Part shown: positions 7,794-62,912 of the stretch, piece after piece
Layout: the number at the start of each line of letters is the position of its first letter
Numbering within the stretch: the first letter of the stretch is position 1
Assembly: GCA_024275095.1 (NCBI GenBank)
Contig: JAJRZV010000117.1
Span: 1-62,912 of the forward strand
DNA length: 62,912 bases
From: a bacterium
GTDB lineage: Bacteria; JAJRZV01
Direction: 5' to 3'
The notes under the pieces: model-generated
The model's input: only the letters and a program-made list of their open reading frames with translations
The model's database searches: none
Told to the model about the DNA's origin: nothing
Program-made: the position numbers and the translations under genes

Positions 7794-8612
7794 ATGGCAG
7801 AGGCATTTGTGAAAAGAAAGCTCGATGAATTAAAAAAAATTATCCGTGAATGTGAAAGCGCCCTGGTTGCTTTTTCCGGTGGCGTAGACTCCACCTTTCT
7901 TTTGAGCATAACTTTTCAGGTTCTCGGTGAAAGAAGTGCAGCATTTACCGGGGTTTCAGAAACCTACACTGGTGAAGAACTGGAGCTGGCACGGAAATTT
8001 TGTAAATCCCGAAATATTCGTCACTTCCTCGTAAACACCTGCGAACTTGAAATGAGGGAATTTGCCTCCAACCCTCCTGACAGGTGTTTTTACTGTAAAA
8101 GCGAGCTGTTCACGCATGCACGTGATATTGCCGAAAGCCACGGGTACAAGTGGATATTCGACGGTACAAATGCCGATGATGTGTCGGATTACAGGCCCGG
8201 CAGGGAAGCGGCCAGGCGTCTGGGTGTCAGAAGTCCGTTGCTTGAGGCTGGATTGACCAAAGCGGAAATCAGGATGTTAAGCAGAGAGCTGGCGATAGAC
8301 GGGTGGGACCGTCCGGCCAACGCGTGTCTTGCCTCGAGGTTTGCATACGGAGTGGAAATTACCAGGGAGAGACTTGCGATGATAGCACAGGCGGAATCTT
8401 TTTTGAGGTCTCTCGGTTTTCGAACCGTGCGGGTAAGGTATCATCACGGAGGCCTTGCACGAATTGAGATTGGAAGGGAAGAAATTGACGGTTTTATGTC
8501 AAAAGAAATGCGTGGTCGGATTGCCAACTTCTTCAGGGAACTGGGATTTAAATACATAGCACTTGACCTTGAAGGATACATGTCCGGCAGTATGAACCGT
8601 ATGATAGAGTGA
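7794..8612 (+). CDS. larE: LarE-family PP-loop ATP-dependent sulfur transferase
   Basis: 272 aa. PP-loop SGGVDS. The catalytic-region motif ANACLASRF (Cys178) is present, along with CFYC (Cys98/Cys101). The C-terminal VRYHHGGLARIE is typical of the LarE/TIGR00268 family. Confidence 0.75.
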   Translation: MAEAFVKRKLDELKKIIRECESALVAFSGGVDSTFLLSITFQVLGERSAAFTGVSETYTGEELELARKFCKSRNIRHFLVNTCELEMREFASNPPDRCFYCKSELFTHARDIAESHGYKWIFDGTNADDVSDYRPGREAARRLGVRSPLLEAGLTKAEIRMLSRELAIDGWDRPANACLASRFAYGVEITRERLAMIAQAESFLRSLGFRTVRVRYHHGGLARIEIGREEIDGFMSKEMRGRIANFFRELGFKYIALDLEGYMSGSMNRMIE

Positions 8613-8618
8613 GAGACA

Positions 8619-8715
8619 TCGGGGTCTGGTCTCAACATTTGACATTCGGGGTTTGATGCCATGGTTTTATGGGCGGGTGCAACCCGTGGATAGAGATTGC
8701 TTCGTTGCTCTCACG
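8619..8715 (+). repeat. dispersed repeat, copy A (long variant)
   Basis: TCGGGGTCTGGTCTCAACATTTGACATTCGGGGTTT plus a 60-nt extension related to copies C and D. It starts 6 nt after the larE-like stop codon. Confidence 0.9.
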
Positions 8716-8818
8716 CCTCCAGGCGTGCTCGCTTTCTGCGTGGCTGCGCCAATGGAGGTTCGCACGCCGCGGGAATTGATGAAGCCAGTGTGTAATGACA
8801 TATCAGTTTTCAATTTTT

Positions 8819-9165
8819 TGGAGGCGGGGGGAGTCGAACCCCCGTCCAGAATTGCCTTCGGTTGGGGCGTCTACATGCTTAGTCCCGGATTAAAGTCTCG
8901 CGTTCGTCAGGCTCCGGGACGGGCCCTCGGAACGCCAGCCTCTTATAGTAGCGACCGGGAGGCGTAGAGGCGACGCCCGCCGGTGCCCCTGCCTGCTGGC
9001 GCCCTCTTACACCCGGCAGGGGAGGTGTAAGGGACGTGGCTGCTCAATTATGCAGCCAGTGCAACAGGTTCGGCAATTATGACGATGCGGCCTGTTTTAC
9101 GAGGTTGACCGCACCTCGGCATGCAACCCCAACACCAGCAACCCTGTCGAGCCCACATCGCCCCC
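8819..9165 (-). ncRNA. ssrA: tmRNA (SsrA)
   Basis: The 5' end GGGGGCG.. pairs with the 3' end ..CGCCTCCA and includes a G3:U wobble. Conserved blocks are GCATGCCGAGG..CCTCGTAAAA, ACTAAGCATGTAG and GGACGGGGGTTCGACTCCCCCCGCCTCCA. The tag ORF GCC..TAA (9074-9048) encodes AEPVALAA. CCA is not encoded. Confidence 0.95.
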
Positions 9166-9195
9166 CACATGCGCGAACCTGCTTTACAATTTAAT

Positions 9196-9204
9196 ATTAT
9201 ATCA
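9196..9204 (-). promoter_or_regulatory. candidate extended -10 (TGATATAAT) for ssrA
   Basis: The minus strand reads TGATATAAT about 30 nt upstream of the mature tmRNA 5' end. The -35 is weak. Confidence 0.4.
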
Positions 9205-9390
9205 CTTCTGCGTCTACTTCCCTACGGAGCCATATGGGATTTTTAAGATTCAGGAGAGGTGCTTTGTTCCTTGGTGTCGCATTGGTTTCTTTTTAGAGAA
9301 GTTACGCTTTTTCGACATGGTTTACAGAAAGGGGGAACAGAAGATTTTTGAATGCATGAAAAGGCCTGTGTCGTGCATTTTTTTATTTTA

Positions 9391-9418
9391 AATGTCAAAT
9401 GTTGAGACCAGACCCCGA
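9391..9418 (-). repeat. dispersed repeat, copy B (short)
   Basis: The minus strand reads TCGGGGTCTGGTCTCAACATTTGACATT, 14 nt after the adh stop and in the same orientation as adh. Confidence 0.9.
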
Positions 9419-9432
9419 TTCTGATGCGCCTG

Positions 9433-10431
9433 CTACCTGATCTTCAGGGCGGCTGCTCCCTGGATTTCGCTGTTTTTAAGCTTGAAGAGAGCTTCGCGGG
9501 CCTTTTCCAGCGGAAAAGTTTCCACGTGGACCTGCACGGGTATTTCTCCGGCGATTTTCAGGAATTCTTCAGCATCGCGGCGGGTATAGTTTGCCACTGT
9601 GGTGATGCTGCGCTCGCGGTAGATAAGGTTGTAAGGAGTGGGGGGCATGTCGCTCATGTAAATTGCGTTGATGGCCACCCTTCCACCGGGTTTGAGTTTT
9701 TCGAGGGCCTTGTGAACGACCCATCCTGCAGGAGCAAACACGGCAGCAGCGTTGAGTTTTTCCGGCGGTTCGTCGTCGTGTCCGCCGGCCCATACGGCTC
9801 CCAGATTTTCTGCCAGTTCGCGATGGTGCTGACTCCGGGTAAACACGTATACGCGGCAGTTCCAGTGCACGGCCACCTGAAGGGCCAGGTGTGCGCTGGC
9901 ACCGAATCCGAAAAGTCCCAGAACTTCACCCGGCCGAACGCCTGAAAGACGCAATGTCCTGTATCCAATGATGCCGGCACAGAGGAGTGGGGCTGCCTTT
10001 TCATCAGTGAAGTTTTCCGGCAGGGAAAAGGCAAAGTTTTCACTGGCCACCGCGTATTCCGCATAGCCGCCGCCAGCGTGCAGTCCTGTGAATCGGGCTT
10101 CACTGCAGAGGTTTTCCAGGCCCTTGCGGCAGTATTCACACTGCCCGCAGGTGCTGTTGAGCCAGCCCACGCCCACGCGGTCACCCTTTTTGAATCGGCT
10201 CACTCCTTCACCTGTTGCTTCCACCACTCCTACAATCTGGTGGCCGGGAATGAGAGGGTATGCAGGTGCTACGACCTCGCCTTCAACAGTGTGCAGGTCT
10301 GTGTGGCATATTCCGCAGGTGCTCACGCGGATGAGCAGTTGTTTTTTTTGCGGTTCCGGCACAGGCATGTCAGCGAGTTCGAGCAGGGCTTTTCCTACAG
10401 GCGCGGGATTTTTCAAAATGACCGCCTTCAT
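9433..10431 (-). CDS. zinc-dependent alcohol dehydrogenase (MDR family)
   Basis: 332 aa with the GICHTDLH zinc motif, the structural-Zn Cys cluster CGQCEYC and the Rossmann motif GFGASAH. RBS AGGAGGG. Confidence 0.85.
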   Translation of the reverse strand: MKAVILKNPAPVGKALLELADMPVPEPQKKQLLIRVSTCGICHTDLHTVEGEVVAPAYPLIPGHQIVGVVEATGEGVSRFKKGDRVGVGWLNSTCGQCEYCRKGLENLCSEARFTGLHAGGGYAEYAVASENFAFSLPENFTDEKAAPLLCAGIIGYRTLRLSGVRPGEVLGLFGFGASAHLALQVAVHWNCRVYVFTRSQHHRELAENLGAVWAGGHDDEPPEKLNAAAVFAPAGWVVHKALEKLKPGGRVAINAIYMSDMPPTPYNLIYRERSITTVANYTRRDAEEFLKIAGEIPVQVHVETFPLEKAREALFKLKNSEIQGAAALKIR

Positions 10432-15679: not shown

Positions 15680-15779
15680 TCCGGGGTCTGGTCTCAACAT
15701 TTGACATTCGGGGTTTCGTGCTGAGGCTTTGCACGGGATGCGGCGGGTGGGATTCCGTGATTGCTTTGTCGTCATCACG
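15680..15779 (+). repeat. dispersed repeat, copy C (long variant)
   Basis: The core is identical to copy A. The extension shares the blocks GCGGGTG, CCGTG and GATTGCTTYGTYG..TCACG with A. It starts 4 nt after the nikR stop. Confidence 0.9.
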
Positions 15780-15806
15780 GGAAGGAGCGATGAGTTCTCG
15801 AATGAC

Positions 15807-15882
15807 TTTCATTGAAGTGTTAGGATAAATTACAAGGTTTTGTTATTTGTTGATGAGGATGGGTGAGCGAGGGGACTCGAAC
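15807..15882 (-). repeat. duplicate of the tRNA-His 3' end (21 nt) plus 55 nt of downstream flank
   Basis: 76/76 nt identical to 16015-16090. It contains a tRNA-His fragment (15862-15882) and diverges exactly inside the T-arm. Confidence 0.9.
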
Positions 15883-16069
15883 GTGCCCGCTCGCTGAGGG
15901 TTAAGCAGGAGGTTTATCTGGATGGAGTGGTTGTTTTTTGAGGGTATTTTTTCATGGTTGCTTTTGCTCGCTTTAGTGTGATGCGGAGCGCTGGCGCGTT
16001 GGGGGTTCGAGAGTTTTCATTGAAGTGTTAGGATAAATTACAAGGTTTTGTTATTTGTTGATGAGGATG

Positions 16070-16142
16070 GGTGAGCGAGGGGACTCGAACCCCCAACTCC
16101 TGGAGCCACAGTCCAGTGCTCTGCCGTTGAGCTACGCTCACC
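16070..16142 (-). tRNA. tRNA-His (anticodon GTG)
   Basis: The minus strand reads G(-1)GTGAGCGTAGCTCAACGG..CTGGACTGTGGCTCCAG..GGGGGTTCGAGTCCCCTCGCTCACC. G-1 pairs with C73, anticodon loop CTGTGGC, T-loop TTCGAGT. Confidence 0.9.
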
Positions 16143-24608: not shown

Positions 24609-24669
24609 TCGGGGTCTGGTCTCAACATTGGACATTCGGGATTCAATGCCGCGGTTTTAGGGGTGGTGG
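24609..24669 (+). repeat. dispersed repeat, copy D (medium variant)
   Basis: TCGGGGTCTGGTCTCAACATTGGACATTCGGGATTCAATGCCGCGGTTTTAGGGGTGGTGG. The extension matches copy A at about 19 of 25 positions. It lies between the GT2 stop and the feoB start, opposite to both. Confidence 0.9.
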
Positions 24670-32215: not shown

Positions 32216-32893
32216 ATGGATGAACGTACGCTCACTGTACTTGTTCGAAAATTAAAACGTGGAAGTGAACATGAAAAAATTTCTGTTCTCTCGTTGATAT
32301 GTGACTCTGGTGATAAGAGAGTTGTTCCAGAACTTCTTGCTGCTCTTAAACGCGAACAGAACACCGCTGTATGCCTGAGGATTATCTGCACTTTGGGCAG
32401 GCTTGGAGACTCACGTGCTGAACCTTCACTGATGGAGATGCTTTCTTCCCCTGACTGGAGAATAAAAGCTCAATGTGCTCAGGCACTTGGAGAGCTAAAA
32501 GCAGTACAAGCCGTAGACCGTCTTGTTACTTTCCTTGGTGATCAAAATGACCTGCTTCATTGGAGTGTATGTGATGCTCTCGGAAGTATTGGAGGTGAAA
32601 AGGCGCTGGGGCATCTTCTCGATACACTTGAACGCGTTCGCAACAACCGCAGGTGCTGGCACATTATATATGCCCTGGGGAAAATAGGTGATGAGAAAGC
32701 ATTTGATAGAATCATCCCGTTTCTTTCTCATCCTGACAGTGTGGTTAGAAGACACGCGGTGCTTGCTTTAAGACAGATGGATTGGAGACGAGCAAGGAAT
32801 TACCTCAAAAAGTGCTTGAAAGATGTGGATGGCGATGTGAGACATTATGCCGACGAGGCCCTCCGGGGTCAGGTCTCAACATTTGACATTTGA
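32216..32893 (+). CDS. HEAT (PBS-lyase type) repeat protein
   Basis: 225 aa with repeated units (R..A...LG..GD..A...L...L). The last 10 codons and the stop lie inside repeat copy E. Confidence 0.7.
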   Translation: MDERTLTVLVRKLKRGSEHEKISVLSLICDSGDKRVVPELLAALKREQNTAVCLRIICTLGRLGDSRAEPSLMEMLSSPDWRIKAQCAQALGELKAVQAVDRLVTFLGDQNDLLHWSVCDALGSIGGEKALGHLLDTLERVRNNRRCWHIIYALGKIGDEKAFDRIIPFLSHPDSVVRRHAVLALRQMDWRRARNYLKKCLKDVDGDVRHYADEALRGQVSTFDI

Positions 32894-47574: not shown

Positions 47575-47605
47575 CGAATGTTCAATGTTGAGACCAGACC
47601 CCGGA
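47575..47605 (-). repeat. dispersed repeat, copy F (short)
   Basis: The minus strand reads TCCGGGGTCTGGTCTCAACATTGAACATTCG. Its outer end lies 4 nt from the -35 box of the tRNA-Glu promoter. Confidence 0.9.
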
Positions 47606-47609
47606 GGGG

Positions 47610-55499: not shown

Positions 55500-55502
55500 C
55501 CC

Positions 55503-55533
55503 TCCGGGGTCTGGTCTCAACATTTGACATTCG
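55503..55533 (+). repeat. dispersed repeat, copy G (short)
   Basis: TCCGGGGTCTGGTCTCAACATTTGACATTCG, 3 nt after the ntrC-like stop. It is flanked by CCTCCGG at 55501-55507 and 55535-55541. Confidence 0.9.
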
Positions 55534-62700: not shown

Positions 62701-62884
62701 TTTACATGCACTCTGCGCTCCATGGCAGGGCAGGGATTTTATCTGATAACAGGGTTCAGGGACATTTTTGTTCTGCCCACCAAAGTAAACAACTGGGTAA
62801 GCAAGGAGTCATGGAGGACTTCGGATCCATCTCAAGGCAGGGGCAGGTATTTCCTTTCCACGCCCCCGGACTCCCCCCACTCCA

Positions 62885-62912
62885 GAATGTCAAATGTCAA
62901 GACCTGACCCCT
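62885..62912 (-). repeat. dispersed repeat, copy H (variant, cut by the window end)
   Basis: The minus strand reads AGGGGTCAGGTCTTGACATTTGACATTC. The two heptamers are a perfect TTGACAT tandem here. Confidence 0.8.

Follow-up and report, generated by a model that had tools for sequence, protein, structure and literature searches.

The described systems closest to the one considered here are the TIRtrons. Di Nocera, De Gregorio and Rocco (2013; PMC3733652) reported genes resembling those of the RAYTs (REP-associated tyrosine transposases) that are flanked by terminal inverted repeats (TIRs) and not by repetitive extragenic palindromes (REPs), and named the genes TIRYT and the units TIRtrons. 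According to the portions of that paper cited here, TIRtron ends share the motif GGGGWSAS, lie at a fixed distance from the gene, and in some cases are dispersed as families whose copies are single, dimeric or grouped. The cited portions of Quentin et al. (2018; PMC6006769) place most TIRYTs in TnpA-REP subclass 2.1, with C-termini of the Bac_DnaA_C or helix-turn-helix (HTH) type, and describe GGGG[AT][CG]A[CG] as unlike a DnaA box. A literature search returned no experimental work on TIRYT or TIRtrons; the element class is already known, having been named in 2013 from sequence alone.

The bacterial contig JAJRZV010000117.1 (assembly GCA_024275095.1), whose entire 62,912 nt were analysed and are referred to below as the window, holds eight copies of a ~28-base repeat, GGGGTC(T/A)GGTCTCAACATTTGACATT, whose identity as a TIRtron end sequence is secure. 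All eight occur as solos, and it is probable that they are solo copies of the 26-28-bp TIR of a TIRtron, an element of ~1 kb with a single TIRYT gene of TnpA-REP subclass 2.1. A first-pass annotation of this DNA had offered relics of a miniature inverted-repeat transposable element (MITE) or solo TIRs as one interpretation, and this was essentially correct, the solo TIRs being those of a transposase-bearing element. Its description of the family as undescribed does not stand, since the class with GGGGWSAS-type ends was published as TIRtron/TIRYT in the two papers above (PMC3733652, PMC6006769).

None of the copies is expected by chance. The 28-mer GGGGTCTGGTCTCAACATTTGACATTCG has seven matches in the window at ≤3 mismatches and none in 100 dinucleotide-preserving shuffles, while the eighth copy, with 4 mismatches, lies on the final bases of the window, at the assembly break. 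When the full window was scanned, match counts were bimodal: the eight copies agree with the core at 23-26 of 26 positions, and the next best sites, at 19 and 18 of 26, are close to the random background. The mismatch search and the shuffles bear out the eight places originally reported, whose coordinates were correct apart from two or three flanking bases that had been included. Six of the copies begin GGGGTCTG, with T at position 7, and the remaining two, at 32865 and 62911, begin GGGGTCAG.

The complete form of the element was recovered from other genomes. Thirteen complete units of 1021-1124 bp carry the repeat as inverted ends flanking one gene, which encodes a ~320-aa HUH/Y1 transposase with an HTH resembling DnaA domain IV. 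In Pfam, the N-terminal part of the protein matches Y1_Tnp (IS200-like; E = 1e-9 to 5e-13) and the C-terminal part matches Bac_DnaA_C; against NCBIfam NF047646 (REP-associated tyrosine transposase) it reaches 63-65 bits, short of the cut-off, which is 80. A profile built from 15 members matches DnaA domain IV (1J1V) at E = 1.5e-8 and, weakly, the E. coli TnpA-REP protein (4ER8) at E = 0.025. The HYH motif (N-H-Y-H) and the tyrosine of Y-I-H-L-N-P (Y-x-H-x-N-P) are invariant in the aligned proteins. In a structure prediction of a TIRYT, made from a shallow alignment, the HUH domain has a predicted local distance difference test score (pLDDT) <50 and only the C-terminal domain is confident.

In these units, the left end lies 19-53 nt ahead of the start codon and holds TTGACA, the -35 box of the transposase promoter. 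In low-GC hosts, a hexamer starting with TA (such as TAATAT, TAAATT or TAGAAT) follows TTGACA after 16-18 nt, mostly 17; by our own reading of the sequences it is present in 11-12 of 16 left ends, and a strict rule finds it in 7 of 16, as compared with 9% of other copies. One clade has an ATG 6-7 nt after this -10-like hexamer, a spacing that would imply a leaderless mRNA, and another clade has a ~50-nt leader with a Shine-Dalgarno sequence. The right end overlaps or abuts the stop codon, in one of two ways: either the stop codon overlaps the inner edge of the repeat (TAA|TGTCAAATG), or the coding sequence extends into the repeat as far as a TGA within it.

Several observations bear on whether these units move. 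When units from different contexts are aligned, they are homologous only as far as the outer GGGG; the units at loci L126 and L127, for example, are 91% identical over 1040 nt, yet their flanks are unrelated. Second or truncated copies occur within one metagenome-assembled genome (MAG) or contig (L007/L049 and L127). Of 73 paired units, none is flanked by direct repeats of ≥4 bp, and there is accordingly no target duplication. Plasmid and phage carriers were limited to 12 distant plasmid matches of <38% identity and one partial phage match.

One of the distant relatives is a TIRYT-like gene on the Legionella adelaidensis plasmid NZ_LR134433.1 (L138), with 26-nt inverted ends at 278-303 and 1248-1273. 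These ends share only the outer GGGTCAGGYCT with the window repeat, which suggests that the repeat may consist of a broadly conserved outer module and a subfamily-specific inner one. As this gene resides in a cultured organism, it could provide an experimental entry point. Two further observations concern the gene itself. The TIRYT gene at L061 (1747-2706, minus strand), which has 85% identity to its L038 counterpart, is intact except for an in-frame TGA at codon 3, indicating either a pseudogene, a sequencing error or a recoding event. Five close TIRYT homologues (P0147, P0174, P0182, P0190 and P0223) are encoded on contigs that are just as long as one complete unit (1036-1038 nt), which suggests that the assembly broke at each end because the unit is present in multiple copies, or that the unit possibly exists in circular form.

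The repeat itself is widespread. A scan of one genome per species with the degenerate 26-mer pattern GGGGTCNGGTCTNNACATTNNACATT returned at least 117 stretches in at least 15 phylum-level groups; among the matches listed, the carriers include Clostridia, Atribacterota, Aminicenantes, Aerophobetes, Elusimicrobia, Planctomycetes, Desulfobacteria, Methylomirabilota, Verrucomicrobia, Bacteroidota and others, as well as one Thermoplasmata MAG that may reflect a binning error. All loci were fetched by the motif itself and come mostly from MAGs, in which binning errors are possible. Across 174 copies the unit is sharp-edged on both sides, with the consensus GGGGTCAGGTCTCAACATTTGACATT(T); the consensus starts with GGGGTCAG, has A at position 7 in 85% of copies and agrees with GGGGWSAS. 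Close pairs are oriented with GGGG outward in 57 cases and inward in 1, with spacers of 0-164 nt, and two copies ~1 kb apart enclose a single gene. Among the matches listed, which were fetched by the repeat alone, 19 of 117 loci encode the same protein directly beside a copy. Identity between the associated proteins drops to ~30%, whereas the 26-mer is conserved, and the variable dinucleotides of NNACATT-NNACATT co-vary as a direct repeat (38 identical pairs, as compared with 18 ± 3 expected). In metagenomes, the exact 28-mer had no match; a relaxed scan for the T variant returned nine contigs, two of which are complete units, and the right end of the L126 unit equals the window repeat at 28 of 28 bases. 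The repeat sequence was not found in the full text of the literature, nor in the supplements of PMC3733652.

The window thus shares with the TIRtrons, through these relatives, a RAYT-like Y1 gene set at short fixed distances between inverted GGGGWSAS ends, a dispersal of ends as single, dimeric and grouped copies, and a protein with a C-terminal DnaA-like HTH (subclass 2.1.2, Bac_DnaA_C). It differs in containing only solo ends, in their density (8 in 63 kb), in the T at position 7 of six copies, and in that no cognate gene is present in the contig.

The repeat was also compared with other known systems. As with the REP/REPIN-RAYT systems, there is a usually single-locus HUH/Y1 gene flanked by a repeat thought to be mobilised by its product; in those systems, too, short extragenic copies number in the hundreds and are located mainly downstream of genes, and inverted doublets give long hairpins. 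However, the repeat unit here is no palindrome, its core having a predicted fold of only -2.1 kcal/mol (z = +0.7 relative to shuffles), as had been stated at the outset. It also lacks a GTAG or CGTC tag, its ends being GGGG and ACATT, and its protein falls below the NCBIfam RAYT cut-off and has an extra DNA-binding domain. The IS200/IS605 elements share the Y1 HUH transposase (Pfam Y1_Tnp) and the absence of target-site duplication, but they have subterminal hairpins and no terminal inverted repeats, whereas in TIRtrons the ends are inverted repeats of 26-27 bp and a single end contains no hairpin. DnaA boxes come to mind because the associated protein has a homologue of DnaA domain IV, and the short tandem units of the repeat could be sites for it. 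Yet the heptamer NNACATT is unlike TTWTNCACA, and the residues of the recognition helix differ as well (DYSAVSQ, as compared with DHTTVLH in DnaA).

An origin from the Tn3 family was also considered and rejected. The first-pass annotation had noticed that the outer end resembles that of the Tn3 inverted repeat, and the repeat does begin GGGGTCTG, while inverted pairs of the MITE kind exist as they do among the Tn3-derived miniature elements (TIMEs). The likeness is superficial. Tn3 ends are 38 bp long, finish in TAAG, generate 5-bp duplications and are served by a DDE transposase, none of which was found here; the present ends are 26-27 bp, none of the 73 paired units has flanking direct repeats of ≥4 bp, and the adjacent gene encodes a Y1_Tnp (HUH) protein.

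A number of points weigh against the assignment of the window repeats to a TIRtron and against what is concluded from it. No TIRYT gene or recognisable fragment of one is present in the 62.9-kb contig by tblastn or by six-frame searches with a protein hidden Markov model (HMM), and the cognate transposase is therefore assumed. Six of the eight window copies, those beginning GGGGTCTG, are one base off GGGGWSAS. The retrieval of loci by motif, together with their MAG origin, biases the conservation and the phylum counts upward, and the stop-codon statistics given below rest on crude gene calls (longest open reading frames of ≥100 aa). Binding by TIRYT, the cleavage site and the strand preference are predictions. 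Finally, an IS200-type reaction requires two cleavage sites, which is a difficulty for the spread of solo ends.

The statement that the window contains no transposase, made when the repeat was first noticed, was upheld by tblastn, by the six-frame HMM search and by a nucleotide profile of the first 120 coding bases, which detected no transposase remnants near any copy. Decayed inverted partners were sought in the 400 nt inward of each window copy, where no match exceeded the background, and an acceptable -10 hexamer 16-18 nt from TTGACA is absent in every window solo.

A further result concerns where the repeats lie. All eight window copies are in non-coding DNA or over the final codons of a gene, as had been claimed, and for five of them GGGG begins 6-16 nt past the stop codon of a co-oriented gene or the repeat overlaps that stop. 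On the plus strand, the exact 28-mer at 8621..8648 (core 8621-8646) has its GGGG 8 nt past the stop codon of a LarE-like gene, that at 15683..15710 (core 15683-15708) 7 nt past the stop of NikR, and that at 55506..55533 (core 55506-55531) 6 nt past the stop of an NtrC-type activator. On the minus strand, the copy at 9389..9416 (core 9391-9416) has its GGGG 16 nt past the stop of a Zn-dependent alcohol dehydrogenase (Zn-ADH). At 32865..32892 (core 32865-32890, plus strand), a HEAT-repeat gene reads through the whole of a GGGGTCAG variant and stops at 32891-32893. The other three copies are placed differently: that at 24611..24638 (core 24611-24636, plus strand, 1 mismatch) lies between the start of feoB and the stop of a glycosyltransferase gene, opposite in orientation to both; that at 47575..47602 (core 47577-47602, minus strand, 2 mismatches) lies between the end of a TrmI-like gene and tRNA-Glu; and that at 62884..62911 (core 62886-62911, minus strand, 4 mismatches, a GGGGTCAG variant) occupies the very end of the contig.

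Pfam searches confirmed the Zn-ADH, NikR, FeoB, family-2 glycosyltransferase and HEAT-repeat proteins among the neighbours, as well as a signal peptidase, the TrmI-like methyltransferase, the NtrC-type activator and a deaminase. The names originally given to the adh, nikR, HEAT-repeat and ntrC-like genes therefore hold. The larE-like call is weaker, as its Pfam matches (PP-loop/QueC) are under the curated cut-offs; the name comes from source-labelled LarE homologues, the nearest of which is 57% identical to the window protein. Look-ups of the exact LarE-like and ADH sequences returned no record.

The proximity to stop codons and the co-orientation reported for the window copies extend to unrelated genomes. 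Ends within -40 to +20 nt of a co-oriented stop were compared with random non-coding placement in 500 simulations. For solos outside the window, the GGGG end is near a stop in 17 of 68 (expected 7.0 ± 2.4), a value that 0 of 500 simulations reached, whereas the inner end is near a stop in 8 of 68 (expected 7.2; reached in 215 of 500). Dimer ends are near stops in 27 cases (expected 11.3 ± 3.1; 0 of 500) and near starts in 12 (expected 10.0; 139 of 500). Complete units behave likewise, and at L109 both flanking genes end inside the two ends of the unit. The recurrent register of -22 arises because one reading frame meets TGA in ATTTGA. The placement of the GGGG end just past the stops of co-oriented genes is thus real. 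As an alternative cause, a bias with the replication strand was considered and rejected: the GC skew is positive across the whole window, without a change of sign, yet five copies are on the plus strand and three on the minus strand, with an orientation that follows the adjacent gene. A constant sign of the skew with mixed orientations means that a pure replication-strand explanation fails.

Placement of this kind might also be expected of a 3'-untranslated-region (3'-UTR) RNA element that acts in the mRNA past the stop, on stability, ribosome rescue or termination: five of the seven assessable window copies are sense-oriented 6-16 nt past a stop or overlapping it, and the same bias is seen elsewhere. 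This reading, which the first-pass annotation had also raised, is unsupported, and we regard it as very unlikely. The copies share no fold; beyond the weak folding of the core noted above, copies with their flanks give z-values from +1.07 to -2.09, with differing structures. Over the whole window only the transfer-messenger RNA (tmRNA) and two tRNAs reach the Rfam gathering score, and in 8400-9700 at E ≤ 1 the only matches are the tmRNA and a sub-threshold permuted-tmRNA match at 8702-8846 (minus strand), so that no repeat has an Rfam match. Moreover, the same sequence is used in both orientations as the ends of the transposase unit, dimers are equally stop-proximal though one of their arms is antisense, and three window copies lie either antisense to the nearest gene end or at a distance from it.

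The same enrichment, for solos and dimers in unrelated genomes, also speaks for a different proposal, namely that the solos are exapted gene-end sites at which a domesticated TIRYT would bind by way of its DnaA-like domain and work for the host, for instance as a roadblock, as an insulator or in the control of 3' ends, and that they are kept by selection and not by transposition. Orientation that tracks the neighbouring gene and not the replication strand is in keeping with this, as are the conservation of the 26-mer next to proteins of ~30% identity, the presence of one TIRYT gene in the same chromosomal context in several samples, and the lack of intermediate decayed copies in the window. 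However, the invariant HUH motif and catalytic tyrosine argue for a retained nuclease function, the near-identical units in different flanks (L126 and L127) and the extra copies at L007/L049 and L127 indicate movement, and three of the eight window copies do not have a GGGG end abutting a stop. Exaptation is therefore unlikely as an account of the solos.

Returning to the reading of the repeats as TIRtron ends, we infer mobilisation in trans by a TIRYT, a division of labour between the protein domains and a cause for the gene-end bias, as follows. A TIRYT encoded elsewhere in this genome would recognise the repeat, the conserved outer GGGGTCAGGTCT being the probable cleavage module of the HUH domain and the two tandem NNACATT heptamers probably being read by the DnaA-like domain. 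Through a single-strand reaction of the IS200/RAYT type, the protein would spread or maintain short non-autonomous derivatives, which take the form of solos in this genome and of head-to-head dimers in others. The gene-end bias could then reflect a choice of targets at gene 3' ends or, alternatively, selection against an inward-facing -35 box that would fire antisense into the gene; under such selection the zone just past a stop would be safe, and the -35 box would be tolerated only when pointing away from the gene. It is tentative, and on present evidence doubtful, that the 3' boundary of genes is a specific site for TIRYT elements or for the solos and dimers derived from them, with GGGG a few bases past the stop codon, whether through insertion coupled to the termination of transcription or translation or through exaptation as TIRYT-bound gene-end elements.

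The pair of copies around the tmRNA gene, ssrA, was part of the original observation. The pair forms a perfect 29-nt inverted repeat, 8618-8646 and 9391-9419, with 744 nt between the arms, and the tmRNA gene lies between them at 8816-9165 on the minus strand. That it brackets ssrA as a unit has no support beyond this geometry. If copies 8621 and 9416 were the ends of one composite element, with the tmRNA gene as cargo in a mobilisable ssrA cassette, the outward GGGG ends and the 744 nt inside would match a TIRtron-like arrangement, and only this pair shares a 3-nt outer flank, ATC. Such an element is nevertheless highly improbable. Each copy is explained alone as the stop-proximal solo of a convergent gene, the commonest placement, and we roughly estimate that, with 8 copies in 63 kb, chance would place two copies this close together and in this orientation in ~10-15% of cases. 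No fetched locus has a tmRNA between or near the repeats, the inner sequence beside 8621 resembles two other solos and not a right end, and ssrA appears by sequence reading to carry its own promoter-like sequence within the block, although a consensus scan did not flag it. The bracketing is probably due to chance, and ssrA most likely just happens to reside between two convergent genes that have each acquired a stop-proximal solo.

The loci around two distant LarE homologues showed no synteny with ssrA, and no terminator-like site was found in 8400-9700. A general association of the repeat with tRNA or tmRNA genes was also rejected, there being four tRNAs in the first 117 loci (L001-L117), two of them near a copy, and no tmRNA.

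Some window copies share sequence beyond the repeat. Those at 8621, 15683 and 24611 have 25-95 further inner bases in common. The extension inward of copy 8621 (8649..8716, plus strand) is common to copy 15683 and partly to copy 24611 (24637-24665), with a pairwise score of 41 against the extension of 15683 (15711..15806, plus strand), and is possibly a remnant of an element leader. The extension of 15683 aligns weakly but collinearly with the start of the transposase gene at L059, covering its leader and first codons (z = 6.3, 0 of 300 shuffles); at the protein level the match reads EFSNDFH against EFPNAFYH, and profile searches did not recover it. That some window solos may be truncated left ends is only a lead. 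On the outer side, copies 32865, 47602 and 55506 share six more bases, CCCTCC, before GGGG (32859-32864, 47603-47608 and 55500-55505), so that this lineage either copies a unit of more than 26 nt or uses a target resembling CCTCC.

The extension of 15683 ends where a perfect 76-nt direct repeat begins. The first copy of this repeat, at 15807-15882, starts exactly at that point, and the second, at 16015-16090, covers the 3' 22 nt of tRNA-His (16069-16141, minus strand) and 54 nt downstream. The arrangement resembles either an att-like duplication of part of the tRNA or a tandem duplication of 208 nt.

Extended copies were also seen in other genomes. At L125 (2272-2600 and 8478-8820) and L118 (1193-1520), homologous non-coding DNA extends for ~340 nt beyond a solo end, the two places on the L125 contig being 81% identical over this length; these may be non-autonomous derivatives with cargo. 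In two related Aminicenantes MAGs, different solo ends are found at the 3' end of the same gene: an ACATT-type end with its inner edge toward the gene at L065 (291-317), and a GGGGTCGCGTCTTGCGTTTTG-type end with GGGG abutting the stop at L044 (7590-7610). This suggests repeated independent arrivals at one gene end.

Beyond the cited portions of PMC3733652 and PMC6006769, the present analysis adds the conservation of the 26-mer across phyla, the -35 box and stop codon embedded in the ends, and the stop-proximal placement. For annotation, the repeats matter in that they break assemblies, this contig itself ending in one, and alter the 3' ends of genes, as in the HEAT-repeat gene that terminates through one. 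For the family, one 26-nt end has remained nearly unchanged across at least 15 phylum-level groups while the transposase has diverged to ~30% identity, the same end also supplies the transposase gene with its -35 promoter box and its stop codon, and solo, dimeric and complete-unit ends accumulate, in gene orientation, just past stop codons. A first biochemical study of a Y1 transposase with a DnaA-like domain could start from these features, which supply a defined DNA substrate and clear predictions. If placement specifically at the gene 3' boundary were true, HUH transposase systems would have a new kind of targeting or function, and one that is conserved in many phyla.

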